DNA of 50,438 bases from positions 1 to 50,438 of the forward strand of contig JBNGIO010006212.1 of the NCBI GenBank assembly GCA_049999805.1, written 5' to 3'. Position numbers and translations under genes: made by a program. Positions 377 to 45,001 of this stretch are shown here, piece after piece. The stretch's first letter is position 1, and each line of letters starts with the position of its first letter. The DNA is from Folioceros fuciformis (Eukaryota). The notes beneath the pieces were generated by a model. That model was given only the letters and a program-made list of their open reading frames with translations, did no database searches and had not been told where the DNA came from.

Positions 377-1912
377 CTAATCTTCGGCCATCAACTTCTT
401 CACGTACACATAGCAGTCAGGTCCTCGTCCATCGGTGTAGAATTTTTCGAGCTTTGTTTTGATGGTAAAACCAGACTTCTCGCAGAAGGCCTGTGCTGGA
501 AAATCGTCCGTCGCCACGTAAGCAAAAGCTTCCACAACTCCAAATTTCTTCACGGACAGGTCTAGAGCGATCCTCAACAACTGTGACCCTGCTCAAAGCG
601 ACCGAACACATATCACAAGTCATGCCAGGTGAGGTCAAGAACCGATTCCGTAAGCGCTAAGCACAGTTACAAGAAGTGCTCACCAATGGTCTTTCTCCTG
701 TACGGCTCATTGATAAACACGGACTTGATAAAGAGATGGTACCAAAACTCTGCTGTTCGTACAACTTGACAAGCAATAATCCCCGCCACAGCTTCTCCTG
801 GCCATTCAGCCTTCTTTTCAAATTCTGCAACTACAGTTCCAGCTTCTATCAGGTCGTGGTTTACATTGTCCGGTGCGAATGGACCTAAATTTGCATCCTG
901 ACGGTCTGAGATATGCGCATCCCACCATAGGCCACCTGTAAACCCATCATCACAAACACCTGTAAGGAAAAGCATCTCAGTCAACCTACATGCAAACTAA
1001 AATACACATGGACAGAGCCTACCTCTTTTTGACAGGACAAAGCAATCAGGGTGATCAGTCCCTTGATAATAATCTTGAATCCTTTCCTTCACTGTAAAGT
1101 CACATGTTTGAAAGAATGCTATACTACCATAGTCTGTCGTAGGGACGTATACGTAAGCTTCAACAACATTGTACTCCCGCCTGGCAACACCGAGACAGTC
1201 CTGCACCAGCATGGTCCCTGCCAAGTCCATAGTCCAACGCAGAATTCTTCAGATCATGGAACATAAACAAGTCGAGTCTGGCTATATGCACTCTTTGCCA
1301 ACTGCTGCTAGACCCTCTAAAACACTTACCGACTTTTCGTCTCCGATAGGAAGGATCTACCTCTAACGACTTGATACACAGGTGGAATCCATCCCCATTC
1401 TGCAAAATCAGGCCAACAATCGACCCCGCTAATACATCACCATCATAGGCTTCCCGTTTGAATTCTTCAATCACAGAATCCAGTCCTCCTGAGCCCTGGT
1501 GAGCAGCTGAACTGTCGGATACTGCACATCTACATGCCAAGCTCTGGCGTGGGGCCCGAGAAGGTTGCCCTGCACCACCCCAGAGCTGATTTCTTCGCCG
1601 ATAACCATAAGTGACAGAGACAGGAGAAGACATTCGGCGACCCCTCAGAACCACCTGCTGCATGCCCCTCCCTAGACACCCATGGCAAAAACCAATGCTA
1701 TTGCTTGTGAATGGTAGCAGTTCTCTTGTCTGCGGGGAGCCGGGCCAGACATAGCTACGACAAAAAGCTGCAGAAATTTTGCGAGAGGCAGGAGAAATTC
1801 TAAGGTGACAGGCATAGAGGGGGTGCCTAAATTCTCTTTGAGGCAGGCCCACCCTGACATCGCTTGCGACGTGCGAGCTACGAACTAAGGGTTGGAGGAG
1901 GAGGAGTGCCAT
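377..1912 (-). CDS. GNAT N-acetyltransferase with two tandem RimI/NAA50-like domains and a transit-peptide-like N-terminus; exons 1912-1330, 1217-1023, 959-684, 588-377
   Basis: Three GT-AG phase-1 introns join four ORFs in frame. Acetyl-CoA motif A occurs twice (LEVDPSYRRRKVG-TMLV; VFINEPYRRKTIG-SQLL), as does the C-terminal motif (AYVYVPTTDYGSIAFFQTCDF..IQDYY; AFAYVATDDFPAQAFCEKSGF..LEKFY). Confidence 0.8.
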
Positions 1913-2838
1913 GTCCTTCTAAAAGCAATGATGCTTTTCAAACCAGCATCCAAGCAACAAGCTCAACTGAGTGAGCATGCCGAAAAGCCAGCTGTCTTCC
2001 TGGTACCTAAGACACTCCAGATGGCCCCTCCTGCCAGTACCCAAAAATCTGCGCAGCAATAAATGGCTCAGCTCCACACACACCATCGCCAAGGATTGAA
2101 GAACCCAGAAATGGGTTTCAGGAACGAGTACCGGAATCCAGGAATCGCGGGGCGGCCTGATTGCACATGCTGCCTCTCCAAGGCATCGTGCAACAACACC
2201 ACTGAGAACTTCACCCTCTCTGCCGTTAACAAGTCGCTGCTTCACCACCACCCTGAAGGCCTGAATGCCGTAATCGTCAGATGCTTGCGAAGCGCGTTTC
2301 GAGTGACTCCCAGAAGCTAAAACCCTAAACCTGCTTTCCAAGAGTTTGTAGAACACAGGCCATTTAAATTTCTTCTGGCCAAGCGGCACTTGGACAGATC
2401 GGGCATCGTGTATGCGAAAGTAGGAGGTTGATGAGGGGATTCCATGTTCTCCCGAGGGTATGTGCTGTTGGGCCGGCAGCAGGAAATTCTGTGCTGTGGG
2501 GCTTGGAGTGCACTGTTGCTGCAGATCATAGGCGTTTTCCGCACATTGCAAACAGGTAAGACAAATGCTGGATGGTTTGAACTTGGTTGGCACTCCGTAA
2601 TGTACAAAAAATGCAGGAAGGTGTGAGCTCGGAAAGCTGTTCACTGCTTACAAGAAACGTCCATTGCAGTGCGGAACGATGCAACTGGAACAAGTCATTT
2701 GCGAAAGTGTGTGACGAGATGGTACTTTGGAGGAAGCTTTACAAGGAAATCCGGTACAGAGATTTTCACAGCAGACAAACTTCGCAACACACTAGCAGGG
2801 AGTCTTGTGTGTGTGAACTCACTACAAACTGAACCAGT

Positions 2839-3210
2839 CTACGTTAGCTGCAGCCGCACACCAGGATGCGCGCCCTTCAGAAGACTGACCCCTTTGGTGA
2901 TGCCGTAGAAAATAGCGATAGTGCTCACCACAGCCGTAATTAGGCCACCGACGGTGAAGATAGCCGCGGGCACCAGAATAGGACTAAGAGGGATCAGAAT
3001 CGGCGAGAGCGCCAAGAGAGTAAGCAGGATGCCGCCGATGGTCAATCCTCCAAGCGTCAACACAGTAGCTCCCACCGCCAACAGCGCCAGTACGCCGAGC
3101 ACACTCTTGCCGCTTGGAGCACGACCCTCTCCGATGTCGTGAAACGCGAATTGAGCCTCGCGCTTCGCTTTCTTGGCTCCCTCTTTCACCGTTTCTCGGG
3201 AACGGTCCAT
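2839..3210 (-). CDS. Oleosin (lipid-droplet protein); a further C-terminal exon is possible
   Basis: About 70-aa hydrophobic stretch with the proline knot PX5SPX3P (PILIPLSPILVP), followed by KGAHPG, which resembles the GxHPxG of U-oleosins. Confidence 0.9.
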   Translation of the reverse strand: MDRSRETVKEGAKKAKREAQFAFHDIGEGRAPSGKSVLGVLALLAVGATVLTLGGLTIGGILLTLLALSPILIPLSPILVPAAIFTVGGLITAVVSTIAIFYGITKGVSLLKGAHPGVRLQLT

Positions 3211-3647: not shown

Positions 3648-4129
3648 TCATGTATCCCGCAGGAGAGGAGAGAGTCTACGAGGAAGGAGTAGGGAGCTGG
3701 TTTGATGAACCAAAACCACTCCCTTCACAGCAAAGAAAGATGGATGCACGACGCTCACGATGTTCTCGCCCAGTTTGAGGGAAATGCTGCCTCCTTTCAC
3801 CAGCACTTGGAGTTTGGCACCTCCCAGAGTTCGTAAGGAATGGCCGCTGTGCTTCAGCAGACGTTCTGGGGGCCAGAAGCCATACACCAGTTGCAGGAGT
3901 GCCACCTCCGTGGTGAGGGAAGAGAAGTCTTGCAAGATATCCTGCCTGAGCTGATGCTGAACTGTGGCCTCTGTGGGGACGAAGGCAGTGACAGCCCCGA
4001 AATTGCTGAGGAAGGTTGTTGGAAGATTGTTGAGAATGTCGGCATTCCTAATGAGTTGCAGAAGCTGAGGATACTCTCCCGAATTCTGCAGCGTTTGAAC
4101 GAGATTGGAGGCTATTCGGCTGATTTTCT
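3648..4129 (-). CDS. Fasciclin (FAS1) domain exon, probably the last exon of the GDSL gene
   Basis: H1-like motif VTAFVPTEAT, central SLRTLGG, H2-like motif VVLVHQTSSLLLP. No signal peptide of its own. Acceptor TTTGCAG ends at 4130. Confidence 0.75.
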
Positions 4130-4212
4130 CTGCAAATGACATGGCAGTGGAGGGGTTACGGGCTGAGCTAGAGTGGAAAGCAAGTGGCAGGAAGTGGAAT
4201 GGTTTCGGTTAC

Positions 4213-5655
4213 CCGGATTTGTGTATTTTGGTTTGTTGGCGAGGTTGAGCGTGTTGAGCCAGGCGAAGAGGTTGGGAGAGAATCCGGTGATGTTGAAGCC
4301 TGAGAAGAGGAGGTTTGTGGCTGCTTCCCACCCTGCATCGGAGGGGTGCTCGTCGTCCCAGAAGACGTACTGCTCAGGGTTTGCGCACACGGTGTAGAGA
4401 GGGTTGCCACTTGCGTCATTGTCTCCGCACATTTTGCCTGGGGTTGTGCCACTGCAGCAATCTGTCAGGGGGTGTGCGAAACCTGCAGAGGAGGAAGAAT
4501 TAGACGCACGCATACGCAGTTGTGGAGTTAGAAGGGGTTGTGAGTCTGTCTTACCGAACCACTGTGGGTTTTGGAAGATGTAGTTGAATGCCTTGCTCTC
4601 GTCCAGCTCCACTAGCTTTGCTTCTGGCAGTGATGTCTCCAGAGTTTGGATGACGGCAGACAGTTTGTTGTTATGGTAGTTGCTCAGAACTTCATAGAAT
4701 GATCCCGAGAGACAAGCTGTGTGATTGGGGCCAGTATTGCTCGGAATGCACTCCAGTTGTATCAAGTTGCCTACTGCGAAGTAGCGAAAGCCTGCATTGT
4801 ACAGCTCCTTGATGTTCTCGTCATGTGCCAAGGCTACTTTGTCCGCCAGGGCCAGAAAGTCCTGCAGGACACTAACACATAAGCTGAAGCCAACCAGGAA
4901 AAGAGGCGAGGTAGAGAAGGAGACGTGAAGCTTACAGCGCCGGTGGCAGAGGAATTTTGTGCAAACAAGCGGGCATAGTCGTTGCCATTGCTGAATAGAA
5001 AGACGATGGAGTGTTCAGGGGCAAAAAGCTGCTCATTCTTGCTGATGATGCCCTTCAACTGCTCCACTTGCTGGTACAGGCTGGCAAGATTAAGATTTGG
5101 GAATACTCCTGACTGCGAAACAGCGAAGTTGATGCCATGCTTGAAGTGATCTGGAGGCGTGCCGCTGGTGATGGATCTATACGGTACGGGAGACGGAAGT
5201 CCAATGAGGTCCGCTGCAAACCGAGACCCACGTTTGTCTCAGTGCCACTTCCAGCTCTGGCATTGAAGGTTGCTATTTCTCAGGAGGAAAGCTGGAGAAT
5301 GGAAGGAACCTACCAAGGAAGTCTGTGGAAACTTTGCCATTGGAGAAGCGGCCGGCAGGATGCCCAGGCCAAGTGATGCCATATGGGTGCCTCCAGGGAC
5401 GATTGAAAAGAGGATCAGTCCTGTTGGCATTTCCAGTGTCTGAAAAGGAGTCTCCAAACACGAAGATAGCAGATGGCTTTCCTGCAGCTGCAGTATTTCA
5501 GACATCATTTCCAGAGCTTTCAGAGCACCAAATCCTGCAAACAGCAATTTCCGCATGCCTGCAGATCCGTCAACGAAAATCTCACCAAGGGCAGTACGGC
5601 AATGGAGCAGGGCAAGTGCAGTAGCCAGGAGCAAATACATTCGAATTCTCCCCAT
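4213..5655 (-). CDS. Secreted GDSL esterase/lipase; exons 5655-5586, 5481-5314, 5213-4936, 4861-4555, 4482-4213, continuing into the FAS1 exon
   Basis: Signal peptide (MYLLLATALALLHCRTALG), block I FVFGDSFSDTGN, PYG..PAGRFSNG, GINFA, block III GNDY, block V YVFWDDEHP. GT-AG introns of 72-104 nt, all frame-consistent. Confidence 0.92.
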
Positions 5656-9269: not shown

Positions 9270-12200
9270 TCAAACTGTGCTAATGCAAAGATGTTTCGGG
9301 CTGGTCCTTCCTTGTTCCATTGAAAGTTGCAGAGAGGTGGAATGGAGATTCTCTCTGCTTGCATCTTCTGCATCTGAGAGTCCTTTCTTTGTGTACTTAA
9401 CGGAAATGTGATGGGCAACACATAATCGGAGTCTTTTCAAAGAAATTATGGAGGTCCCTTTGGGTGTGATGTGTCGCCAGTTGGCATCTAGCATAGGTAG
9501 TTTCTGGCTGTGCCTGGACAGATGCTCTTCTGTATCATCACAGGATATGTCTGCCGCAATCCTTCCTTGGTTCATTTTGAATAACCGTTGTTTCGTTCTT
9601 GCTTGACTCTTTGGTTGATTCTTATACCCAACCATAAAGCTGTGCACCATCCCGTCCATGTCTGTCCACCAGCTCTGACCAGGCTCCTTCCTGGCCCTGA
9701 TTCCTTTTCTCCTTGCCTGCATCTCCCGTGCCTGCTCCCACATCTGGGCACCGGTGTAAATGTTTGATATCAGCACATATGCAGCAGCGTCGTTTACGTT
9801 CACCTTCAGTGCTTCGTCGAAAGCATGGCGTCCCACCTCCACATTGCTCCACTTTTGAGAAGCATTCAGCAGAGAGTGCCAGATTGCAGCGTTCGGCTGT
9901 ACAGGCATTGTGCTTGCCATGGCAAGTGCCTCGTCCAGGTGGCCTGCGCGGCCTAGGAGATCTACCATGCATGTGTAGTGCTCCACTGTGGGACTGATAC
10001 AGTAATCTCTGCTCATGGAATCAAAGTATTCTCTCCCCTTGTTCACCAAACCCGCATGACTGCAAACTGATAGTAAACTGAGGAATGTGATGCCGACTGG
10101 TTGTATGCCATCCTCCGTCATTTTGTGGACTAATTCAAAGACCAGTTCACTGTCTCCTTGACATGTGTACCCTGCAATCAGAGTGCTCCAAGCTACGACA
10201 TCCTTTTCAGCTAGCATGTCAAACAACTGCTGTGCATCAACCATGCTGCCAGCCTTCGCATACATGTTTATTAGACTGCTGGCTACAAACGTATCCGTTA
10301 AAAGTTCGTGTTCGATTATCTGTGCATGTAGTTGCCTCCCCAGGTGCAGAGCTGCGACATTTGCACATGCTTGCATCAGGCAGACAAATGTAGCAGCGCT
10401 GGGGACAGCGATGCCTTCTTCTTGCAAGGCAATGTAAAGAAAGAGGGCGTGTTCGCCCATGCCCAGCTGGGAATACCCTGTGATCATGACATTCCAGGAC
10501 ACCACGTCTTTCACAACAAGTGTGTCAAACACTCTACGGGCGTCTTCCAGGCTGCCGCACTTTACATACATGTTCACCAAACTGTTAGCTACAAGCACAT
10601 CAGCGTCATGTCCTTGTTCCCTAACTTGCGCATGAAGCTGCTTCCCCATCTGCAAAGCTGTGGTGCCCATACTTGAACATGCCAGAAGGAGGGACACAAA
10701 AGTCACAGAATCAGGCACAGCAATGCCTTCTTCTTCCATGACATTGAAGAGAAGAAGCGCTTCACGGCCCATGCCATGCTGTGAATAGCCTCCTATCAGG
10801 GAATTCCATGTCACCAGATCTTTTCGACCAAGTCCGTCAAACACTTTTCGGGCATCGTCCAAGCTACCACACTTTGCATACATGTTTACCAAACTGTTCG
10901 CTACAAACAAATCTGCCTCGTGTCCTTGTTCTCTAATCTGTGCGTGAAGCTCCTTCCCTGTCTCCAAAGCGAGGGTGCCAACACTTGCACATGCTTGCAG
11001 GAGGTATGAAAAGGTCACAGAATTGGGTAAAGCGAAGCCTTCGTCTTGCATAACGCGGTAAAGACGAAGGGCTTCTTGACCCATGCCCTGCTGGGAATAC
11101 CCTGCAATTAACGACGTCCACGTCACCACATCTTTCTGCGCACACCCATCAAACACTCTTTGAGCGTCTTGCAAGCTGCCACACTTTGAATACATGTTAA
11201 CCAAACTGTTGACTACAAACACATCCGCCTCAAGCCCTAGTTCTATGATCTGCGAATGAAGCAGCTTCCCCGACTCCACAGCTGGGGTGCCTACACTTGC
11301 ACATGCATGCAAGAGGCAGACAAATGTCGCAGAATTGGGTACAGCAATGCCCTCGTCCTGCATAACATTGTAGAGAGAGAGGGCTTTCTGCCCCATCCCC
11401 TGCTGGGAATACCCTGCCATCAAGGCATTCCACATCTCCACAGGCTTTTGACTAACTCTGTCAAACACTGCCTGGGCAGCTTCCAAGCTGCCACACTTTG
11501 CATACATGTTCACCAAGCTGCTTGCAACAAACACATCAGCCAGATGTCCTTGTTCTCCAATTTCCCCATGAAGCTCCTTTCCCATCTCCAATGCTGGGGT
11601 GCCCACACTTGCACATGCCTGCAAGAGGCACACAAACGTCACAGGATCAGGTACAGCCATGCCTCCACCTCGCATAGCACTGTAAAGAAGGAGGGCTTCC
11701 TGTCCCATGCCTTGCTGCGAATATGCTGCTATCATGACAGTCCAAGTCACCACATCTTTCTGTCCAAGTCCATCAAAGACTCTCTGAGCATCTGCCAAGC
11801 TGCCACACTTGGCATACATGTTCACCAGACAATTACAGACAACCAAATCATCCCCAAACCCACTGGCCAGCAAGTCAGCATGCACCTGCTGCCCAGACTC
11901 CAAGTCCGAACCTCTTGCACACGCCTGAAGGGCCGCCACAAAGACATGCCCATCTGGCTCCACACTTGACCTGAGCATTTTACGATAGAGTGTTATGGCC
12001 TGCCTGTCTTGTCCGTGTTTAACATGCGCAGAAATTATGGAAGACCACATATAGACGTCGGGCTCAGCAACCACTCCAAAGACATCCAACGCATCTTGCA
12101 ACCTGCAATGTAAAGCATACATGCGCAGAATGTGGTTGCACAGGAACGTGTCCATCTCATAGCCCGCTTTCACCACGAAAGCATGCACTCGACGACCCAA

Positions 12201-12560
12201 CACAAGATCCTTGTTCACTCCACATTTCTTAATAACAGGATAAAACAGAAACCTGGAAAGAAAACCGCCTCTCAGCACCAGCACTCCCAAAGCCTCAACC
12301 GCCTCAGTGACACGGCCATGATCACATAGCTTGTTCACGAGTTTAGCCGTTACCACGCTGTCACATCCTGCATGCCTACCAGGGATGGAATATTCAGGCA
12401 AGCTACAGCTGGAGGTGCTGGAAGATCCTTGTCCAGTCACACATCCACCTGCTGGGCCTGGCAAATTTGTGGCACATGATCTGCCCTCTGTGACTTTGCT
12501 TTTTGCCAGCAATTCATCCCTTGGAGTCAGGGAAACGGGAAGCGGAGCCCTCCTTGCCAT
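9270..12560 (-). CDS. PLS-class PPR RNA-editing factor with E domains and a degenerate WW-type DYW domain (intronless, 1096 aa)
   Basis: Repeated P-L-S triplets (NSLVNMYAKCGSLEDARRVFD, VVTWTSLIAGYSQQG), HYTCMVDLLGRAGHLDEA, PG box KEPGQSWWTDMDGMVHSF, and a decayed deaminase (HSQKL...CVAHH). Confidence 0.93.
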   Translation of the reverse strand: MARRAPLPVSLTPRDELLAKSKVTEGRSCATNLPGPAGGCVTGQGSSSTSSCSLPEYSIPGRHAGCDSVVTAKLVNKLCDHGRVTEAVEALGVLVLRGGFLSRFLFYPVIKKCGVNKDLVLGRRVHAFVVKAGYEMDTFLCNHILRMYALHCRLQDALDVFGVVAEPDVYMWSSIISAHVKHGQDRQAITLYRKMLRSSVEPDGHVFVAALQACARGSDLESGQQVHADLLASGFGDDLVVCNCLVNMYAKCGSLADAQRVFDGLGQKDVVTWTVMIAAYSQQGMGQEALLLYSAMRGGGMAVPDPVTFVCLLQACASVGTPALEMGKELHGEIGEQGHLADVFVASSLVNMYAKCGSLEAAQAVFDRVSQKPVEMWNALMAGYSQQGMGQKALSLYNVMQDEGIAVPNSATFVCLLHACASVGTPAVESGKLLHSQIIELGLEADVFVVNSLVNMYSKCGSLQDAQRVFDGCAQKDVVTWTSLIAGYSQQGMGQEALRLYRVMQDEGFALPNSVTFSYLLQACASVGTLALETGKELHAQIREQGHEADLFVANSLVNMYAKCGSLDDARKVFDGLGRKDLVTWNSLIGGYSQHGMGREALLLFNVMEEEGIAVPDSVTFVSLLLACSSMGTTALQMGKQLHAQVREQGHDADVLVANSLVNMYVKCGSLEDARRVFDTLVVKDVVSWNVMITGYSQLGMGEHALFLYIALQEEGIAVPSAATFVCLMQACANVAALHLGRQLHAQIIEHELLTDTFVASSLINMYAKAGSMVDAQQLFDMLAEKDVVAWSTLIAGYTCQGDSELVFELVHKMTEDGIQPVGITFLSLLSVCSHAGLVNKGREYFDSMSRDYCISPTVEHYTCMVDLLGRAGHLDEALAMASTMPVQPNAAIWHSLLNASQKWSNVEVGRHAFDEALKVNVNDAAAYVLISNIYTGAQMWEQAREMQARRKGIRARKEPGQSWWTDMDGMVHSFMVGYKNQPKSQARTKQRLFKMNQGRIAADISCDDTEEHLSRHSQKLPMLDANWRHITPKGTSIISLKRLRLCVAHHISVKYTKKGLSDAEDASRENLHSTSLQLSMEQGRTSPKHLCISTV

Positions 12561-12879
12561 ACTCGATAATTCACCGCTCGGTGGAGGCCACCACGGCTCC
12601 TGTTGCCCTCAATGTGCTTCAGTGGCATAGAGGAAGACAACGAACCTCGTCTTGAAGGTGCGCGCGCAGCACAATCCCACATGGAACATTTTACTTACTG
12701 TACTCCGTGGGTTCACAGCGAGTACACCACCAGAGTTTGGAGACTTTATTAGAAAACAAGAGATAGAAACCGTCTACCCGTTGAAGGAAGGAAGGGAACA
12801 ACTTCGTGAAGGGCACCGAAACCAAGGGGAGGAGTCCCTGCAATGACGTCTCTCCCAAATGATCAATCCTCCAAAGAAC

Positions 12880-13741: not shown

Positions 13742-15595
13742 AACATAGACTACACTCGCATCCTAGCCTTTGATTGTGTAGAGACAAAGACTACTAGTGA
13801 GAGTACATCCTTGTCTATGATTGTGTACAAACATAGACTACTAGTGCGAGTGCATCCTCATTTATAATTGTGCAGAAACATAGACTACTAATGCGAGTGC
13901 ATCTTTGTGTACGATTTTGTAGAAACATAGACTACAAGTAAGAGTGCATCCCCGTCTATGATTGTGTAGAAACATTGACTACCAAATCATCCTAGCCTGG
14001 TGTATGATTATGTAGAAACATAGACGACGACACTCTAGCCTAGTCTATGATTTTGTAGAAATATAGACTATTAGCACATCCTAGCCTAATCTATGATTCT
14101 CTATTGACATAGACTATGAGCACAACCTATTCTATGATTATGCAAAAACATAGACTAAGAGCGCATCCTAGCTTAATCTGCTGTGAGCACATCCTAGTCT
14201 AAGGTTGTGTAGAAAAATAGACTACTAGTGCATCTTAGTCTATGCTTCTATAACATGGACTAGGAGTGCATCCTAGTTAATATTGTAGAAACATAGACTC
14301 CGAGCACATCCTAGCCTAATTTATGTATTTGTAGCAACATAGACTCCCGATCGCATCCTAGTTTATAATATAGGAACATAGACTTCAAGTGCATCCTAGT
14401 CTATGATATCCTAGAAACATAGACTTTGAGTGCATACTAGTCTATGATATAGTTGAAAATAGATTTCGAGCGCATACTAGTCTACGATATTGTCGAAACA
14501 TAGACTTCGAGCGCATGCTAGATTTTATACCGTAGCGATAGACATTGAGTGCATTCTAATTTATGATATTGCGAAACATAGACTTCAAGCTCATCCTAGT
14601 CTATGATATTGTAGAAACATAGACTTCAAGTGCATTCTAGTCTATGATATTGTGAAAACATAGACTTTGAGCGCATCCTAGTCTATGATATTGTAGAAAC
14701 ATAGATTTAGAGCGCATTCTAGTCCATGATATTGTAGAAACATAGACTTCGAGCCCATGATATTGTAGAAATGGAGACTTCAAGCACATCCTAGTTTATA
14801 TTGTAGAAACATAGATGTTGAGTGCATCCTAGTCTATGATATTGTAGACATGTAGACTTCGAGCACATCCCAGTCTATGATATTGTAGAAATATAGACGT
14901 CGAACACATAGTAGTTTTTATTGTAGAAACATAGATGTCGAGCATATCCTAGTCTATGATATTGTAGAATCATAGATTTCGAGCGCATCCTAGTTGTAGA
15001 AATATAGACTTCAAGTACATTCTAGTTATATTATAGAAATATAAACTTCAAGTATATCCTAGTTTATATTGTAGAAACATAGACTTCGAATGCATCCTAG
15101 TCTATATATATTGCAGAAACATAGACTTCGAGTGCATCCTAGTCTATATATATTGTAGAAACATAGACTTCGAGTGCATCCTAGTCTATATATATTGTAG
15201 NNNNNNNNNNNNNNNNNNNNNNNNNNNNNNNNNNNNNNNNNNNNNNNNNNNNNNNNNNNNNNNNNNNNNNNNNNNNNNNNNNNNNNNNNNNNNNNNNNNN
15301 ATATTGTAGAAACATAGACTTTGAGTGCATCCTAGTCTATACATATTGTAGAAACATAGACTTTGAGTGCATCCTAGTCTATACATATTGTAGAAACATA
15401 GACTTCGAGTGCATCCTACTCTACATTATAGAAACAAAGACTTGGAGCGCATCCTACTTATAGAAATATAGACTTCAAGTACATTCTAGTTTATATTCTA
15501 GAAATATAAACTTCGAGTACATCCCAATTTATATTTTAGAAACATAGACTTCGAGTGCATCTAATCTATATTATTGTACAAACATAGACTTCGAG
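13742..15595. repeat. Tandem satellite with a 41-42 bp internally palindromic unit; spans the assembly gap at 15201-15300
   Basis: Consensus ATATTGTAGAAACATAGACTTCGAGTGCATCCTAGTCTATG, dozens of copies. CATAGACT and AGTCTATG are reverse complements. Confidence 0.95.
15201..15300. other. Assembly gap (100 N) within the satellite; true array length unknown
   Basis: Run of N flanked by near-identical satellite units. Confidence 0.99.
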
Positions 15596-16042
15596 ACGTA
15601 GACGTGCTGGAGCTGCTAGAGACCGGTGTTCTATTTAGCACGGGCTTTGTTTGTACGTGTCTGCATGGTTTCATACTACGTCTAGCGTGAAGCTCATTTT
15701 CTCAAAACACTCACTCACATTTATGGACGATACAAAAGTGAAATTGCCCATTTCAAGAAACAACAGCCACCTCCCAAACTAACCACTAGCCTAGGGGACA
15801 TCAAGGTGGCATCGACTACCATGCCGCAATGCGGCCGCAAATCCAGACCCCGCTCCAAACGACAGACCCGGGATCAAAAATGAATTCGTGGTCCCCCAAC
15901 ATCTGGATTTGTTGGTGACTGATCGAGCTAGGCAGCCAGTTGCATCCATGTCAGAGGGACCTAAAGCCAGGACTCTGCACCAAGAACAGCCACGAGAGCA
16001 GGCTCGAAGTAAGAAAAAGAGTTACCATACCTGACGAGCCCA

Positions 16043-17719
16043 TTATGCTGCAGCAACTGATGCGGTTGCCGCTCCTGGTATGTTATCAGTCTGTTTCTGT
16101 GGAGCACGACCACCTCGCTCCCCACCAGCACGCTTCCCTCGCTGGCGTCGGCGGCGTTGAACAACTGGTTCAAAGGAGTCAAGCTGCACAGGAGGGTTTC
16201 CAGGACCAAAATGCCTTAAACTCATCATCTGCTGCTGCTGATCACCAAACTGCGTAGGCTGAAAAGGACTGATAGGAGGTGAGTGCTGTCCGCCGAAGAC
16301 ATGCTGCTGGTCACCAAAGTGCGTAGGCAAAGGAGGGATGATCCAGGGTGGGTACTGTCCGGGGAAGATCTGTGCATGCGAAGGGTCAAGGATGATCCCA
16401 TGCGGGTGCTGGTCATTGACCATCTGCTGTATATTCCCCAAGCCAGGAGCAGGATAGTAGCTGTGCATGCTAGCAGGCACAGCAGGAGCAACTCCAGCTT
16501 GTGGTGCTTGCATTGGAGCAGATTGTGCCCGATGCGCTAGCATTGCCCTGCGCTCTTCCTTGGATTGAGCCACAGCCACATACAGCGGCTTTGTTCCCAC
16601 CATTCGGCTATTCATTGCAAGCATCGCACGGCTTGCCTCCTCAGGGGCTGAGAATGCCACAAATCCTGAACCCCTACTCCGTCCCTGAGGGTCTCTCGTA
16701 ACCTTGCATGAGGTTATGGTGCCGAAATCTGCAAATAATTCTCTCAACCTCTCATCATCCACGTTGTCGTCCAGGTGCTTAAGGTAGAGATTCGAAAACT
16801 TTTGCCTGGCAAGCCGCTCCTGCCATTCGTGATCAAACTTAGCACGTAGCTCTTCCTCTCGCTCAGCTTTCTTCTGGGCTCTTCCGACATACCACTTCTT
16901 ATCGTTGAACTGCTTTCCATTAAGCTCAGCCACAGCTGTTGCAGCGTCCTCCGGGTGTTCGAAGTCGACAAACCCAAAGCATTTCGACTTCCCTTCAATA
17001 TCCCTCATTACAACAGCACTGGCAATGTTCCCATAAGCTCTAAAGATGTGCCCGAGCTCCTCCTCGGTTGTGCTCTCAACAAGGTTCTTCACATAGACAT
17101 TGGTGAACTCCGACGCAGCACTAGCTTGAGCCCTCTCCCCACGCGGTACAAACGGCCCCACAAACACTTGCTTGTCGTTCAACAGCATGCCGTTCACGCT
17201 CACAATGGCATTCTGGGCATCCTCCTCCTGCTCGAACTGCACAAACCCATACCCTCTGGATTGGCCTGAGCAATCGGTGGCCACCTTGCAGGAGAGGATT
17301 GGCCCAAAGTTTATGAACGTGTCGTAGAGAGCTCTGTTATCAATGGAGCTGTCTAGGTTCTTGATGAAGATGTTGGCAGCTCCGCTCTTCCGAACACTAG
17401 AGTCCCTGTGCGAATACATAATCCGAATAGGTTTTCCTCTCACATGGGTGAAGTTCAGGACATCCAGGGCGCGCATCGCATCGTTAGCACTCCTGTAATT
17501 CACATAAGCGTACTTCAGCGAGCGTCGGGTTATGCTATCCCGACAGACTCGGATAGAGAGTACAGTCCCAATCTGGCTGAAGATCTCGTAGAGATGAGCT
17601 TCGGACACACTGGGCTCTAGGTCCCCCACGTAAAGAGGAGGCGCCAGCAACACCGGGAGAACCAACTCCGATCCAGACTGCGGAAGAGTCTGATGGGACA
17701 GCGCCTGAACCTGAGCCAT
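16043..17719 (-). CDS. Cytoplasmic poly(A)-binding protein-like, four RRMs, intronless, no MLLE domain
   Basis: Starts MAQVQ like plant PAB2 (alternative ATG at 17731). [81 protein letters not shown], then a P/Q-rich linker. Confidence 0.92.
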
Positions 17720-17861
17720 AGCCGACTCCATGTGTCGAACACGAACCTGCTCGCTCCACACACAGGTCCGGAAGGGCTCCAAACGGCGAGTCACAACCTA
17801 AACGGCGCTCCGAACGACGGGTCACCCTAAACGATTGTGTGGGATGAAGACTACACTCCGA

Positions 17862-34939: not shown

Positions 34940-36040
34940 ACAAAGCGCATCATGAAATACCTCAGGAAGCTTGGCTTTCTCCAGTCCCCTACCGATAGCA
35001 ATATGTCCATCCTGGTTGTTGGAGCCCTTTTCGTCATATTTGCCCTTTATGTAGACGATTGTGTTCCTCTCAGCAACAGCACAGAATAGCTCAATAAGGT
35101 TAAAGCTATGCCTAGACAGATTTGAGATGACAGATTAGGGGGATCTTCAGTTCTGTCTAGGTATACAGATTTTGCGGGACATGACAGCTGGACAAATCAC
35201 CCTACGTCAGACCAAGTACTTAAAGGAAATTCTTAAGCGCTTTAACCTACAAGATACACGACCTGTTGCTACTCCCTCGTCAGTGGGGGTAAAGTTGACT
35301 GCTGAATACTCACCTCATAGTCAAGCTGAGATTGATGACATGGCCGCAGCCCCTTATGCTGAGGCAGTTGGCTGCCTAATCCTTTTGGCTAACTTGACTC
35401 GCCCTGACATCAGCTACTCGGTTAGCATGGTTTCTCAGTTTCTTAAGCAACCAAGCCGATTGCACTGGGCAGCAGTTAAACATGTCTACATATATCTTAA
35501 GGGCACCATCAACTATGGCCTGCAATATTCAGCAAGTGGGAGACTGAGCATGGAGCTTATCTCATATGCAAACGCTGATTGGGCTTCAGATGCCGACACC
35601 AGAAAAAGTCAATCAACTTACTGTTTTATTCTTGCCTCTGGAGCTGTTAGCTTGAGTTGTAAGAAACAGACTTCCTTGGCGCTTTCCTCCACAGAGGTAG
35701 AGTATAAGGTGTTGACTAATGCTTGCAAAGAAGCTGAGTGGCAGCACCAGTTCTTGGAATCTGTTAAACAAGCCCAACCAGGTCCAACCAAGTTAATGTG
35801 TAATAAAATGAGTGCCATTGCACTTGTTTCAAACCCTAGATTTCATGCTCGCACAAAACACATAGAGTTGTACCACCACTACATCAAGGATGTGGGCTGA
35901 AAGGGGTGCAATCAAAGTGGAGTATGCGAGTACACATGATAATACCGCAAACATTTTTACAAAAGGGCTGACCAAGAGCAAACACTTTCAGCATCTGGCA
36001 GCCTTAGGTGTGCGTGAGTTTGCATATCCAAATCAGTCTT
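34940..36040 (+). pseudogene. Copia RT C-terminal half and RNase H, opposite in orientation to the surrounding elements
   Basis: ALYVDDC, PYAEAVGCL..TRPDISY, YANADWASD, LSSTEVEY, FHARTKHIE; with stops and frameshifts. Confidence 0.9.
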
Positions 36041-36519
36041 AGTGGCAATTGTCTATGCAGGGAAAACACATGTCACTAGCCTATCTTGTCTATGTGCCTA
36101 CTAGCTGCCACTATAATGATAGTGTAATGAAGTGTTAACATGATATGCTTGCAAAGCCATGGAAATCATTCCAAGGCATATGTACAAGGGATTGCAGTCA
36201 GCAAATTTTGATCTTAGCTCTAGTTGGACTTATGAATCTCAAGGGCATGGATGGTGATATCATCCTTGAAAAGAAAGTTTGCATTATTCAAGTGGCGATG
36301 GCAAATCATCTCGGTGTTCGAGCTTCGACGAGAGTACCCCCAGCATTCACCGAACTGTAAGGGGCTTGCAAGATATGGAGTGGCATTTGTAGGAAAGGTA
36401 GGAATCATAAACACTGCTATGAACAGACCTCTCTCTTTGCAAAATGAGTCAACAAAAAGTATCAAATGTAGCTATGTGTTGCATGCCCTTTGGGCAATGA
36501 ACAAGGTGCTCATATCTAC

Positions 36520-39408
36520 AAAGTCCCTTCACTGCTTTAGGATCCAGCTTCCTACGCTTCTCATCAGGTACATGCACATATGCAATGCACCCAAACACTT
36601 TCAAGTGCTTAATATCCGGCTTATAGCCATACAGTCTCTCAATTGGTGTAGCATCATGAATTCCTGCCGTAGGAGTTCGATTCAGTACATACACTGTTGT
36701 CATCACTGCCTCTGCCCAATTATCATTAGGTAAGCACTTCTCATTTAGCATTGCCCTTGCTGTTTCCATGACTACCCTGTTCTTCCTCTCTGCAACACCA
36801 TTCTGTTGTGGTGTGTATCTGCAAGTCAGCTGTCTTCGTATACCATGATCTGCAAGATACCTGTCAAACTCATTTGAGACATATTCTCCCCCTCCATTTG
36901 ATCTTAGACAAGAGATGGAGCAGCTGAATTCATTTTCAGCATGCTTTTTGAAGTCCTTGAAAGACTCGAACACTTCATCCTTATGCTTCAGTATGTACAG
37001 CCACGTGTACCTGCTGAAATCATCAATGAAGGAGACATAGTAGTGGGCTCCTCCAAACGATGCATTCTGTGAAGGACCCCATACATCAGAGTGTATCAAT
37101 TGCAAAGGTCTCGAGCTGTTCTGCATGTGTCGCACAAATGGAAACCTTGACTGTTTTCCAAATTGACATGCATAACACACATGACCAAGATCAGCATACT
37201 TGAACTTGGGCAATCCTTCCACCATGCTTTTCTGTTGCATAGATTTCAGCTTCTCTATGTTCACATGCCCAATCCTCTTATGCCATATTTCAACATCACG
37301 TATGGCACCTGCATCATTTGCAAACATTGCTGCATTTAGCTCTGGAATGGATGCATCCAGAGTGAACATCCATCCATTCCTACTACCTTTAGCAATCAGT
37401 TTGCGCCCTCTGTCATATTCTTCAATAAAGCATCCATCTTTATTGAATCGAACTTGCAGATTTTGTTCAGCCATCTGTCCAACAGACAACAGGTTCTTCG
37501 TAATGGTTGGAACATGCAACACATCTTGCAGACTCTTCTGCTGACCATTAGGCATCCTAAGAGGAACAATTCCTCTGTGCTTTATATCTGTTGTGTGTCA
37601 TCTCCTATACACACATGGCCATGGGGACCTACATCCATCTTGTTAAACCACTCGCCATGCGGAGTCATGTGGTTTGATGCTCCTGAATCAATGTACCATC
37701 TCTCATCATTCTGCCCATCCTGTTCAGAGAGATGTTGCATGGCAAAAACCCTATCCTGGTCATTTCCAGCATTACTAGAGGAGGCATAGTTCCCATGCTG
37801 CCTTCCTTTTTCTCTCATGTCTGCTTGCTGCTTATAGTAGTCCTTAGCAATATGACCAACCTTACCACAGTAGTGACACTCCTTGTCTCTATTGGAATGG
37901 TCATGAGATTGAAAAGAACCATCTCTTCCTCTTGTGGCTCTACCTGCGCCTCTAAAACTTCCAGATTCTCTTTGGCCTAGCGCATTTCCTCCACGCCAAT
38001 TGTCTTGCTGATTGTACGTGTTCCGAGCATCACCCCGTCCTCGGAATGAACCACGACCTCTGTGGCCTCTCCCACGCTGGTTAGAAAACAAAACAATGTC
38101 TCTCCCTTGAGATATACCTGAACCTGTGTTCAGACCAAGCTTAACTTCCTCATGCAGCAACAAAGCAACCAATTCATCCCAACTTGGGAACTCAACTCTC
38201 ACAGAGATTGATGTGTCAAAGGACTTGTACTCCTTGCCAAGTCCGTTCAGAGTAACTGCAACCATGTTATCTTCCGTCACACTTGCACTAATTGTAGCAA
38301 GCTGATCAGCTATGGTCTTCACCTCTGTTGTATACACGAGTATGGATCTGCTACCTCGTGACAAGTTGTTGAACTGCTGCTTCAACTGGATTTTCCTAGC
38401 ATGTGTGACATTTCCATAGTTCCTCATGAGTATGTCCCATGCATCCTTCGGAGACTCACATCTTGTGATCTGTATGACCATAGCATCTAAAATGCTTAAG
38501 GAGAGCCAGTGTAACACTTAACATGCTCTCTCAGTCCAATGCTTGTGAGCAGTCTTTTGCTCCTGTGATGGAGTACGATCCATCTCTAGTTCACTCTCAT
38601 CACCTGTGCAGAGGTCCCAATAGCCTCTACCTACCAAGAAGTTCTTCATCCTGAACTTCCACAAGGCAAAATTCTTGTTATCCAACTTCTCTCCCACGAC
38701 CTGAGAGATATTGTCTGATCCCTGCACATTAGCCATGATTCAGGCTCCTTTACGCACCAACACTTTTCCTGTAACTCCCTCCACTGCTGCAGAGCTCCAG
38801 CACTCCACAAGCCTCAATCAAATCTCAACAATTCCTGAATGTGCAACTAACTCTTCGCTAAGCAAAAACAGCCTTTGCTCAAGCTTTTAAAAAACAAAAC
38901 ACTTTTTGCCAAGTTCAGGCCTTCCTCCTCGCAAATCCTAGGCCTGCTATGGCTTCCACGGCTTGGTTGCCTCCAATAGTTGCTGCTCCTCCTGAGTCTC
39001 TCTCCCTCTTGTGTGCTCTTGCGCCTGTAGCGCCTGTAGCGCCTGTCGCGGCTTCCTACGCCGCTGCACCTCCTGCGCCTCTCAATGGCTTGCATTGCCA
39101 ACCACCTTCACGCTCACGGCCATAGCCTCAAACCCCCGCCATAGCCACCGGTGGTACCGGCACTCTCTCTGGCTCTGATACCATGTTGAAATAGCACCAC
39201 AACCTTAGAAGGACTCCACAGTTCCTTACTTATGGTGCACAGGATGCTACATATATAGCCTTCATGCGGGGCAACCCTCGATAAGGTAAGCCTTAGTCTC
39301 AAGGGTGCAATATCCTAGTATATCCTGATAACACTTAGGTGATAGATAACTACGAGTTCAATATGGGATAATCTACACTATCCTAAGTGTTGTATGCTCA
39401 TAATAACA
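36520..39408 (-). mobile_element. Nested Ty1/Copia element N: 5' LTR, PBS, gag-protease-integrase; 3' half missing
   Basis: LTR 39184-39408 (TGTT..AACA), PBS 39172-39183, gag (KLDNKNFALWKFRM, CHYCGKVGHIAKDY), WYIDSGASNHM, integrase (HSDVWGP, PQQNGVAERKNR, KLDPKA). Interrupts the RT of element M at 39409. Confidence 0.9.
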
Positions 39409-40265: not shown

Positions 40266-42214
40266 TGTCGAACAGAAAAGTTTGATAATCGGTCTAGGAA
40301 AGCCTAACTTGGTTTCTTTTTGTTTAGAACAGTTTGAAGGGAGGCATGTGGAAGGTAGGTTTCTGGGCAAGTGCCCATGGTAGGTAGTGAGTGGCTGTTG
40401 AAGGTTTTTATGGATTTTTTTAGTTCTATTCTAGTAGGTTAGGATAAGACGATACCTACGTAGTAGGATGTCTACCTACATACGTAGAGAGAGTACCTAC
40501 GTGGGGAAAATGGAAGATACCTACGTAGGTAGGGAAGGTACTTATACGGTAGACACCCCACCTACGGCAATGGGGTGGGCTATCTACCTACGACAATGGG
40601 TGGGAATGGTAGGGAACCTACCTACGAGGAGAGGGGTAGGGAACCTACCTATGAGGAGAGGGGTAGGGAACCTATTTACGAAGGGAGCAACAGGGACCCT
40701 ACCTACGAAGGGGACATCCTCACCCTACGTAGGGAAGGAACCTCAAGTTGAAGAACAAGTGGATCCCTTCCCTACCAAACCTGTAGATGGTGGTGAAGGG
40801 ATATCCCAAGAGATCCACACAGAGGAAGGTACAGTGGAAGTTCGTGGATCCAAAAGAAGACGAATCCCAATAATGGAGGGGGGCCGAGTAGCTCAACCTT
40901 CAGACTCTACCTCCCTTCAGGAGCAGTCCTAGCCACACCTTTTTGGAGAGAGGGTCAACGAATCTTCTATGGCAGCGCCGACAGTCCTAATCTTCAACGG
41001 CGCGCACTGCCCTAGCAATTATTGGTAGAACTTAGCCTCTTGGTAGGTGAGCGCAGTTAAAGTTGGTGGCACCTAGTGTGAGAGAAGGGTGGCCCACCAC
41101 CTACATGTAGGAGATGGTTCATGTGTCAATCTCTCCTATAAGGAGGGGCTACACAAAGAAATGAACCACCACATTCTGCACTCTTCTCATGGCAAGTTCT
41201 CATGCTTAGCAGAGCGTAGGAATCTCATTGCCGGTTGTGTGCCATCACAGCGCCTGCTTATGGCTAGAGTTGCAGTGGTCAAAGTGCTTGGCGGAGGGCT
41301 CATATTCTTCCATGGGCACCCTTGCAAGTTGCTTCCCTTGTGAATGGTTGTTGTGCTGCTGTAGGTGTGTGGCAATACCTGTGTGACTGTTGGCTTGAGG
41401 GTAGACTCCAGGGAAAGACTTCTTGGAAGTTCTCGCTAACAAGCACAAGCACGCAACAACCAGCCCAAGGAAAAACTTGTTGGGCCGTTTTTTGGATTGT
41501 GAGTGTTTCGTGACGAATAGTGAACCAACTTTCGTAAGCCTGTGTGGACGTCTTGGCGGAAGGGGGAGCTACTAGTGCCCTTTCTTTTGCCGATTGCAAA
41601 GGTTCTTGTGGTGTCTGGTTGGGAGTGTTGAACACATGGAGACGAGTAGTTGGATCACTGTGGAAGGTGTTGTGAGGAGACTTGTGAGGAAGGGGTGTTG
41701 GATGTAGGTAGTTAGAAATCGGTAGGGGAAGGTACTGGGGCCCTTCCAAGTAAAGGAATGGTGCATACCTACTGACTAGATGTGTTGAAGGTATGCGCTA
41801 GGGAAGGTTGAATGTCAAAGGTGAGCGATAAACACTGTTGGAGGGAGCGAAGCAGGCTCGGAGGAAATTTTGGTCGTTGGGCGTAAGAAGACGAACAACT
41901 AGCTGGTGGGTTGAGGAAGGTGTTGGAGGGAGCCTTGTGAGGGAAAGGCATTGAGTGTAGGGAGGTAGAAATCGGTAGGGGAGGTACTGGGGCCCTTCCA
42001 AGTGAAGGAATGGTGCATACCTACTGACTGGACGTGTTGCAGGATTGGTAGGTACGTGGTTAGGAGGGTTGACTATTGTAGGGGAACGATAGACGTAGCT
42101 GACCAGGCTTAGAGGGAAGCGATTCTGGGGAAGCCTACAACGACCGTGGGTTTGATGTGGCCACGCTACATGTGAGCAGGTGCCTGGTAGGGGTACCACA
42201 CCCGCTTGCCCACA
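40266..42214 (+). mobile_element. Solo LTR (1949 bp, family X) with TSD TTCGT, inserted in Copia M pol
   Basis: TG...CA termini; TTCGT at 40261-40265 and 42215-42219; removing it restores ...RSVTFDE-PTSPRSG. Confidence 0.92.
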
Positions 42215-45001
42215 TTCGTCAAAGGTCACACTCCTGGCAAGGACAACACGTAGAGATTTTGGGTCAAACAGCCTATAGGCTTTGGAAACTTCAGAGTATC
42301 CTAGAAAGAGGTAAGGCTTAGCCCTGTCATCCAACTTTCGACGTCTCTGTTTTGGTATATATGCAAAGGCCAAGGACCCAAATACACGCAGATGTAACAG
42401 GCTGGGTTTCTTTTTCCAGAAAGCCTCATAAGGAGTTCTACCAGGAACTAAAGTAGTGAGCACTCTGTTCAGGATATTGGCAGTAGCAGAGACGGCTTCA
42501 CCCCATTATTTCTTTGGTAAGCTAGCCCATCTCAACATTCTCCTTGTCATTCCCATCAATGTCTGATTTTTACATTCAACTACGTTGTTTTGCTGCTAAG
42601 TGTATGGAACACATAGTTGTCTAATAATGCCTTTAGCCTGAAAAAGTGTATAATACTTGTGTCCAATAAATTCACCTCTGTTGTTTGTTCTGAAACATTT
42701 CACCAAGTGCCCTGTCTGTCGCTGTACCATGGGTATCCATACTTTGATGCAGTCGAAGGCATCACTCTTAAGCTTGAGTGGAAACACCCATGTATATCGA
42801 GAAAAATCATTCGTCAGAGTAAGGTAATATTCAGCTCCTCCCAACGATTTCACTTGTAACTTTCCAGCTATATCTGCATGAATTAGTTCGAGGACTGACT
42901 GTGCCCTTTTTGCTTGCTTATTTTTGAAGGGTAACTCCTTCTGTTTTGACAACACACAAGAGCTGCAGATAGGGAGGTGCTTGAAACAAGCAGGAAGCTT
43001 CTCTCTAAAGCAATCAACAGATGACATTAGGTTCAGTTACTCTTTGTTCACGTGACCTAGCCTAGCATGCCACAAATTTGCCTTTGAAACTGATGAGGAA
43101 GCAAATGCTGAACTAGAATGTGAACAGGGGTACAATTTATGCAAATCATTAACCAATTCCCCTTTGGCTATGCAATGTCCAAGTGAAGACAAAGCATAGA
43201 AACAGCAACTGCCACGCTCAAAGGTGAACCCATAACGACCTTGCTTAGTAGCAGCCCTGACTGACAGAAGGTTCTTTAACATGGCAGGAACGAATAGGAC
43301 TTCCTCCAGTAGAATGTCATCACTTCCAGACAAGGTAATACTGACTGTACCAGATTTGTGTACTTCTAGTCCTCTATCATCCCCCACGTAAACTAACTGG
43401 GTAGTTGTATGTGGATTGAAGGACATGAAGAGACTACGACTGTTATGGACATGTGATGTGGCACCAGAATCAATGAACCAGGAGGAGGAGGACTCCCTTG
43501 TTAAAGGGAGGCAGACAGTAAGAACAGTTAAGGCTGCTTTTATGAAGGGAGACCGTAGAGCCCTTGTTCTTAGCAGCGACATGAGCTTCTGTCCTAGCCT
43601 CCTTCTTTGGCTCTCCAGCTTTCTTTTTTCGACAATCTCTCTCCCAATGCCGAGGAGTCTGGCACCAATTGCAGCTACCTTGCCGTTCGGTTGAAGAACT
43701 TGAAGCCGGACTTGGATGAGGTGATCTCGTTCCTTTTCCTTTCCCCTTCGCAAACGAGTTTTCCTCTGGCAGCAAGCATAACTTTCTCACTTTTCACTTG
43801 CTGTCCTTGTCCTCCAAGTCTGTGGCGGGACTGCTCTTCTTGAAAGAGTGCACTTGTGAGCTCACTAAGAGTGAGCGTATGTGCCTGTCCAGAAGTGACA
43901 GCTGCAACCGAAAATCGTAGGGCTGAGTTATGAGATGAGACGAAGTTCTAATAAGACGGTGGAAGACTGGACAGTAGTTGAGCAACTGCTTCATTCTCCG
44001 TCAACATGCTGCCAAGAGAGGCCGGCTGTGCTCTTAGGAATCGAAAGCAGCTCACATGAGCTTCGACAGAGTCCCCTTCTTGCATCCTAAGCAAGTGGAA
44101 TTCATTCCTAGCAGTCACAAGGGTTAGTATATTCTAAACCTGGTATGTATCTTTCAACTATTTCCAGACTTCAGCAGCTGTTTCCAAGTAGTCAACTTTT
44201 GTGACCATGGTTTCATCCAAGCCAGAGAGAAGGATAGCATAAGCAATTTTGTTGCCTTTATACCACTTGGATTTTTCATCTACAGTCGGCTGAACAGCTG
44301 CGGAGGTTGGGATCTTATTGGGATCAGTCAGAGAACCATCAACGTACTCCCAGACATCTCTAGCATTGAGAAATGCCTTCATCCAAGCTCTCCAGCTTTC
44401 ATACCAGGTCTGCTTGCCATCAGACCTATCTTTTTCTTTGAAGTCACCTAAGTAGGTGACTCCAATAGAAGTAGAAGTTTGTGCTGATGTTGTCATATTT
44501 GCAGGAGTCTGCCCAGGGATCTGACCAGGTTGAACATTGAGGTATGAAGCCAAATGGCCCAGTAATTGAACTGTTCAAATAGCTTCTAAGGAAGTATGAG
44601 ATCTTGGACTCCTCTTCCTGATCAGAATCGACACTGCTAATTGACGCAGATCGTGTGGGCGAGAAATATGTGTTCAGCTCACTATCTTCAGTGGACATGC
44701 TCTAGATAATCCCAAGTATCTGCAAGAGAAGACTAGACGGCCTGGAACTTAAGCGAAACAGTAAGTACCTCTCCATGATGGTTGGTTTTCAATTAGTTTT
44801 CAGCTGGACCCTAAAAACGAAAATTGAATGGACACTACTGAGCTCAAAACGACCTGTGTACGTAGGTGGGTGTGCTGAGTTGGCTGACAAATGGAAGGGC
44901 AAGGTTGATCTTGACAGCCCTTGAGATGCAAATGCTGCAGGGCTAGCATACGAATGAACCGGTGCCACTCACAAACGTGTCTGTACAAGTATGGAATGAA
45001 A

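Follow-up and report, generated by a model that had tools for sequence, protein, structure and literature searches.

The window analyzed here, a 50,438-nt stretch of DNA from Folioceros fuciformis (contig JBNGIO010006212.1, positions 1 to 50,438, assembly GCA_049999805.1), carries on its minus strand, at 5655-3648, a six-exon gene that likely encodes, in one mRNA, a signal peptide, a complete GDSL/SGNH hydrolase domain, a linker, and a divergent FAS1 (fasciclin) domain, the last being joined to the rest via an 83-nt intron. It is probable that this GDSL-FAS1 fusion is genuine, that it is rare, and that it has not been described before. An earlier reading of the same DNA, made from the sequence alone, had proposed a single gene for a GDSL esterase carrying a FAS1 domain at its C-terminus, and the same architecture is found in the open reading frame (ORF) of a hornwort transcript.

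The junction between the GDSL and FAS1 domains

Splice signals read from the DNA give a joined coding sequence of 1575 nt with a single ORF of 524 residues (Table 1). All five introns are of the GT-AG type, all five acceptors end in TGCAG, and the GC content at third codon positions (GC3) is 0.61 vs 0.58 in the two halves of the gene. The GDSL and FAS1 ORFs overlap in different frames, as the sequence-only reading had noted, and the 83-nt phase-1 intron that it placed between them is present as described, with 4212 as its first base, 4130 as its last base, the acceptor context TCATTTGCAG/AG (the slash marks the splice site), and the spliced product ...NKPKYTNP-E-KISRIASNLVQ.... The size of this intron is in line with that of the other introns of the gene. 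Past the donor, the GDSL frame is open until the stop at 4114-4112, and the FAS1 frame opens only at 4208 and ends with the stop codon 3650-3648; because the two frames differ, only removal of the phase-1 intron 4212..4130 joins them. The FAS1 part, as had also been claimed, has no signal peptide of its own: the sole ATG upstream of it lies inside intron 5, four codons before the acceptor, and no signal peptide precedes it.

The same arrangement occurs in a transcript-derived homologue. An exhaustive phmmer search with the FAS1 part against 1.84 billion representatives returned 27 hits, of which the eleventh (P0011), together with P0028, its mate in a 90% cluster, is a fused protein. Both are 533-residue EukProt entries of the hornwort Nothoceros aenigmaticus, obtained as Trinity transcripts and labelled 'ORF type:complete'; since they stem from assembled mRNA and not from a genome gene model, both domains lie on one assembled transcript ORF. 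P0011 matches PF00657 at residues 68-335 and PF02469 at residues 405-523, with a single FAS1 phmmer match at 370-529, and P0028 contains both Pfam domains as well. The two isoforms differ at 51 of their 533 positions.

A tblastn comparison of P0011 with the window yields four collinear pieces (residues 23-95, 93-185, 196-363, and 369-501), which are exons 2, 3, 4-5, and 6, with identities of 48, 40, 33, and 31%, respectively. The last piece begins at 4127, where the first complete codon past the proposed acceptor lies. In a MAFFT alignment, ...FSGFNITGFSPNLFAWLNTLNLANKPKYTNPEKISRIASNLVQT... is placed over ...FSGYGFTDFTPNLVIWFNLLNLTDNPS-RNEGRVSRDVVQAVAA... with one gap, and the two proteins are collinear through the linker. 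Because both domains occur in identical order in this transcript-derived protein, which is collinear with the window across the junction, the fusion is more than a coincidence of splice sites. The likeness extends to the whole layout, as P0011/P0028 also have a signal peptide, a GDSL domain, a short linker, one FAS1 domain, and no region of the arabinogalactan protein (AGP) type, in 533 vs 524 residues, and their FAS1 domains belong to the same supported clade as that of the window protein. The differences are an identity of 30-48% per exon, a count of N-glycosylation sequons of nine in the P0011/P0028 entry vs four in the window protein, and the SGNH blocks, which are altered in P0011/P0028 (GGGYGDTGN, GDDY, and, in P0011, WWNSIHPT), such that other residues stand in place of the Ser nucleophile, the Asn of block III, and the Asp of block V. 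P0011 and P0028 are thus pseudoenzyme-like; judged from these replacements, either they would be inactive paralogues or the conserved role of the family would not be catalysis.

When all GT/GC...AG pairs were checked, seven GT-AG pairs were found to preserve one ORF: donor 4212 with acceptors 4162, 4129, 4111, and 4075, and donor 4159 with acceptors 4085, 4073, and 4064. Only the pair 4212/4129 has the TGCAG acceptor of the other introns of the gene, and it is the best-fitting junction because of this acceptor and because the resulting length differs from that of P0011 by only one residue.

Some features elsewhere in the gene bear on the products that it may yield. The N-terminus has a hydrophobic core, with a Kyte-Doolittle(11) peak of 2.38 at residues 6-9, from which a secretion signal is predicted; a further in-frame Met occurs at codon 6. 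Intron 1 has a tandem acceptor, CAG/CTGCAG/ at 5482-5487 (minus strand), whose two sites are 6 nt apart and both keep the frame; use of the alternative site gives a product of 526 instead of 524 residues, so the gene may yield two proteins that differ by an Ala-Ala following the signal peptide. Retention of intron 4 would add 24 residues to the GDSL domain without truncation, and neither P0011 nor P0029, a single-domain GDSL protein described below, has a matching insertion.

Properties and kinship of the two domains

In SGNH proteins, block I is GDSxxDxGN, with the nucleophile Ser close to the N-terminus, block II supplies a Gly, block III is GxND with an Asn, and block V is DxxH. Pattern matching finds the four blocks intact in the window protein (GDSFSDTGN with Ser35, GRFSNG at 67, GNDY at 156, and WDDEHP at 316-321), and in a MAFFT alignment they coincide with the same blocks of P0029. 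The earlier statement that the catalytic Ser and DxxH are intact is borne out by this match, which identifies Ser35 and, in DDEH, Asp317 and His320. PF00657 is matched with 26.7 bits (cutoff 23.6) on 4214-4861, that is, on exons 4-5 with the in-frame intron 4 read through; exon 2 taken alone scores 20.9 bits, under the 23.6 cutoff. Searches of PDB sequences with the GDSL pieces found distant bacterial SGNH proteins and nothing closer. From its blocks, the SGNH domain is predicted to act as an esterase or acyltransferase.

P0029, from Cryptomeria japonica (374 residues), is labelled 'At5g03610'-like by NCBI, a label that the source uses for seed-plant GDSLs and that is not an orthology assignment. 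It resembles the window protein in having a signal peptide and the four SGNH blocks, in its 64% identity over exon 2, and in a C-terminal WxNxL motif common to both. In contrast to the window protein, it ends about 12 residues past WxNxL, without FAS1, so the FAS1 exon takes over at the point where an ordinary GDSL protein comes to its end. The literature mentioning At5g03610, as far as its text was available, consists of expression and proteome lists and gives no defined substrate.

On exon 6, PF02469 is matched with 24.6 bits (cutoff 22) over profile positions 3-116 of 123. Among the 27 phmmer hits, 24 match PF02469 at E<=0.001 and 23 at the gathering cutoff; the hits without a passing match include P0001, which scores 20.2 bits, and P0010 and P0022, for which PF02469 gives no match. 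When the PDB was searched with a profile of the subfamily, periostin, TGFBIp, and a fasciclin-like protein from Rhodobacter (1w7d, E 2e-6) were matched. Structure prediction, which had been proposed beforehand, gave for the FAS1 part, with a 22-row alignment made of FAS1 sequences, an AlphaFold2 model with a predicted local distance difference test score (pLDDT) of 86.9 and a predicted TM score (pTM) of 0.80, which fits solved FAS1 domains. A Foldseek search of the PDB with this model gave 35 matches at E<=0.001, with the FAS1 domains 2ltb, 5nv6, 1o70, 2vxp, and 1w7d among the top ones, and the top FAS1 matches have a probability of 1.00 and a query-normalised TM score (TMq) of 0.60-0.71. By the Pfam match and this confident model, the predicted domain on exon 6 is FAS1.

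FAS1 domains have as hallmarks an H1 region (TxFAPTxxAF), an H2 region (GxxHxIDxVLxP), and a central YH motif. In the window protein, the H1 region is VTAFVPTEATV and the H2 region is GVVLVHQTSSLLLP, both recognisable in the alignment, and the YH position carries VYGFWP. The motif A-L-x-x-x-V-Y-G-(W/F)-W-P is invariant in the window protein, P0001, P0002, P0022, and P0011, where it replaces the usual YHV region, and it could serve as a search signature for this FAS1 subfamily.

Per-domain phmmer scores are 98 for P0001, 86 for P0002, 43 for P0011, 38 for P0022 (a partial match), and 37 for P0028; the other 23 proteins score 29 or less. A maximum-likelihood tree was built from 26 FAS1 domains, leaving out P0022, P0004, and P0010, in which fewer than 90 query residues are covered. 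In this tree the window domain groups with P0001 and P0002 (99/96), and P0011/P0028 then join them (96/87), with support values that are rough, given an incompletely converged bootstrap and several rows of deviant composition. P0001, P0002, and P0022 are FAS1-only ORFs that were called on Logan contigs without splicing. The similarity of these ORFs to the window starts where exon 6 begins, and their upstream sequence is unrelated, which is what is expected of a last exon preceded by an intron; P0001 and P0002 may therefore be last exons read without splicing.

A glycosylphosphatidylinositol (GPI) anchor signal is found in many, but not all, fasciclin-like arabinogalactan proteins (FLAs). Like FLAs, the window protein is a plant protein, presumably secreted, with a FAS1 domain, and it differs from them in carrying an enzyme domain and no AGP run. 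Its C-terminus, ...LLLPRRLSPLLRDT, is without a hydrophobic tail, and a crude test shows a single hydropathy peak within the final 30 residues, which belongs to a FAS1 strand. The 524-residue model contains 0 AGP glycomotif runs by the criterion of at least three [STAGV]P dipeptides at a spacing of <=6 residues (PMC12209756). An identity as an FLA was rejected, as there is neither an AGP motif run nor a GPI-like tail. Comparison with AstaP of Scenedesmaceae shows a single FAS1 domain in both and, for the window protein, predicted secretion as in AstaP, and the highest TMq in the fold search (0.71) is to AstaP; in contrast to the window protein, AstaP is without an enzyme domain and has no profile match to the window FAS1 subfamily at E<=1. 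With no AstaP chain at E<=1 in the search of the PDB with the subfamily profile, the resemblance is one of general fold, and the window protein is not demonstrably AstaP-like.

Competing explanations and possible function

If the gene is read as a fusion, a single-exon FAS1 module would have been captured downstream of a GDSL gene, with a new donor placed just before the old GDSL C-terminus; the latter step is suggested because P0029 ends about 12 residues past WxNxL, where the window protein enters its linker. The protein would enter the secretory pathway and act in the apoplast, where the SGNH domain would carry out ester hydrolysis or acyl transfer. FAS1, in this protein without an AGP glycomodule or GPI signal, would bind a partner at the cell surface or in the wall and thereby localise or orient the enzyme on it. 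The sequence-only reading had suggested a secreted esterase that FAS1 would tether to polymers of the wall, cuticle, or mucilage. The proposed role of FAS1 as a tether or localising module draws on analogy with FAS1 domains described as adhesion and interaction modules (PMC6032426, PMC10147662).

The locus could instead give two products, a reading that we consider quite improbable: the main mRNA, retaining the 83 nt, would encode an ordinary single-domain GDSL protein ending at 4114-4112, and FAS1 would be untranslated 3' sequence, a decaying exon, or a separate small gene starting from ATG 4138. The unspliced frame is indeed a plausible GDSL with a 33-residue tail, the canonical GDSL P0029 stops shortly after the same WxNxL motif, and three FAS1-only ORFs exist (P0001, P0002, and P0022). 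However, these three come from ORF calling on contigs without splicing, and their N-terminal extensions are non-homologous; a FAS1 protein from the internal ATG would be without a signal peptide, yet FAS1 domains are extracellular (PMC6032426); the 160 codons of the FAS1 ORF are intact, and their GC3 is similar to that of the GDSL part; and the transcript-derived P0011/P0028 hold both domains in one complete ORF. An independent FAS1 gene from the internal ATG was accordingly rejected, given the missing signal peptide of its product and the fused state of the homologue. The possibility that the exon belongs to the 5' portion of the oleosin gene lying downstream was rejected too, since a stop codon (3650-3648) comes before the ATG of that gene at 3210. 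That the two domains are fused through another junction, with donor 4212 and acceptor 4162 (a 50-nt intron, lengthening the linker by 11 residues) or acceptor 4111, is exceedingly improbable. Such pairs likewise keep one frame open, but their acceptors (CTCAG/ and AATAG/) are without the TGCAG common to the other four introns, a 50-nt intron would be shorter than every other intron in the gene, and 4129 gives the closest length match to P0011.

Two further alternatives accept the fusion and differ in what the domains would do. By analogy with AstaP, FAS1 might be a binder of hydrophobic small molecules that holds a lipophilic substrate or acyl acceptor or passes it on to the SGNH site, which we regard as very unlikely. 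In the Foldseek search, the astaxanthin complex of AstaPo1 (8c18), at rank 13 by E-value, has the top query-normalised TM score (TMq 0.71), and the TMq of AstaP-pink1 (22iy) is 0.68; AstaP, a neofunctionalised FAS1 protein that binds carotenoids, offers a precedent (PMC10147662), and GDSL esterase/lipases have been linked to carotenoid esterification, with xanthophylls esterified by GDSL enzymes in Triticeae (PMC7971304). Against this, the spread of TM scores among the FAS1 matches is small (0.60-0.71), the subfamily profile matches Fdp, periostin, and TGFBIp in the PDB and no AstaP chain at E<=1, and binding of small ligands is uncommon for FAS1 (PMC10147662). There is also a low probability that the conserved role of the fused protein is non-catalytic, with the GDSL fold as a scaffold for binding or structure, in which case the catalytic residues would simply have persisted in the window copy. 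The replacement of the Ser nucleophile, the oxyanion Asn, and the catalytic Asp in P0011/P0028 favors such a role, but the window protein keeps the four blocks exactly like P0029, which argues for selection on catalysis, and P0011 may be a paralogue and not an orthologue, given its identity of about 33% over exons 4-5.

Several observations weigh against the reading as a fused, tethered enzyme. The FAS1 Pfam score is marginal, at 2.6 bits over the cutoff, and the confident AlphaFold2 model depended on the alignment of FAS1 sequences, a shallow 6-row alignment having given an unusable model with a pLDDT of 46. The identity to P0011 is low, at about 30-33% over most of the length and 48% on exon 2, and the loss of Ser, Asn, and Asp in P0011/P0028 cuts against a simple tethered enzyme, such that the conserved role of the family may not be catalysis. 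Fused forms were found in one other lineage only, as one cluster of two sequences among the 27 phmmer hits, and a protein search with P0011 gave five matches, with both domains only in its own cluster. Word-index searches for longer proteins, which are weak evidence, gave 1327 candidates with the FAS1 query and 1054 with GDSL exons 4-5 as query, none of them at E<=0.001 with the former and none with the latter. The exact junction, 4212/4129, is a putative one supported by homology. Finally, if intron 5 were retained, translation would stop at 4112..4114 (minus strand), and the product would be a GDSL protein with an unrelated 33-residue tail and no FAS1 domain; such an isoform may be made alongside the fusion.

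The sequence-only reading had held that no GDSL-FAS1 protein has been described. This stands for the literature, in that the available text of papers on GDSL, fasciclin/FAS1, and hornworts contains no description of one. The words GDSL, lipase, esterase, and hydrolase do not occur in the accessible part of the main FAS1 review (PMC6032426), and a GDSL-FAS1 fusion is mentioned neither in the available portions of a 14-genome bryophyte survey of AGPs and FLAs that includes 12 hornworts (PMC12209756), together with one supplement, nor in those of PMC13415971. It does not stand for databases, as P0011/P0028 are already in EukProt with both Pfam domains precomputed. The fusion is a lineage-restricted one whose architecture is already, unremarked, in a public protein set. 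In the ESM Atlas, a search with P0011 found ordinary GDSL clusters only (scores 0.78-0.79); none combined the two families.

For most plant GDSL enzymes no substrate is known, and the ligands of plant FAS1 domains are likewise an open question; the fusion suggests a possible functional link between two families that are often mentioned together (both terms occur in 176 papers). It may be a 'Rosetta stone', in which an apoplastic SGNH esterase/acyltransferase and FAS1 were welded in hornworts since both act on the same target, a proposal that we consider unlikely. If true, an esterified substrate (of wall or cuticle, or lipophilic) would be recognised by plant FAS1 domains or presented by them to GDSL enzymes, and the separate GDSLs and FLAs of vascular plants, often listed together, would cooperate likewise. 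One FAS1 domain on an intact GDSL domain, without the heavily glycosylated AGP parts that complicate work on FLAs, would be a compact test object. For annotation, the gene illustrates how ORF-by-ORF reading splits a real two-domain gene.

Neighbouring genes and other features of the window

The coordinates of the exons and introns and of the other features of the window are given in Table 1. The fusion gene and the oleosin gene are very closely spaced. Small intron sizes, a GC content of about 50%, and the existence of a hornwort homologue are in keeping with a compact bryophyte genome.

Table 1. Exons and introns of the putative GDSL-FAS1 gene and other features of the window (a slash marks a splice site).
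Feature	Position	Strand	Remarks
Exon 1	5586..5655	-	ATG at 5655-5653; signal-peptide-like N-terminus MGRIRMYLLLATALALLHCRTALG, aligns with the N-termini of P0011 and P0029
Intron 1	5482..5585	-	104 nt, phase 1; 98 nt with tandem acceptor
Exon 2	5314..5481	-	SGNH block I FVFGDSFSDTGN (Ser35) and block II GRFSNG; tblastn identity 48% to P0011, 64% to P0029
Intron 2	5214..5313	-	100 nt, phase 1; read-through meets a stop after 13 codons
Exon 3	4936..5213	-	SGNH block III GNDY, Asn157
Intron 3	4862..4935	-	74 nt, phase 0
Exon 4	4555..4861	-	Central GDSL region
Intron 4	4483..4554	-	72 nt, phase 1; stop-free, in frame
Exon 5	4213..4482	-	Block V FWDDEHPS, GDSL end ...WLNTLNL, linker NKPKYTNP
Intron 5	4130..4212	-	83 nt, phase 1; donor CGG/GTAACC, acceptor TTTGCAG/AG, 66% pyrimidine
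Exon 6	3648..4129	-	One FAS1 domain, residues about 366-524; stop 3650-3648
Two adjacent stop-to-stop ORFs	1163-2647	-	252 and 242 residues; no Pfam match at E<=0.001
Oleosin gene	2842-3210	-	PF01277, 37.2 bits; 435 bp downstream of the fusion gene stop, same strand
PPR protein with E motif	9273-12608	-	Single ORF of 1112 residues; PF13041, PF01535, PF20431
Assembly gap	15201-15300		100 N, within AT-rich 14001-16000 (GC 0.36 vs about 0.50 elsewhere)
Four-RRM_1 protein	16046-17797	-	ORF of 584 residues, resembles poly(A)-binding protein; no PABC domain in the ORF
Copia-type fragments, two sets	35139-38517 and 41303-43786	both	gag, Pol_BBD, integrase, SH3_retrovirus, RVT_2

PPR proteins with an E motif are of the type linked to RNA editing in plant organelles. 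The two sets of copia-type ORFs, which are broken by stops or frameshifts, look like degenerate elements.

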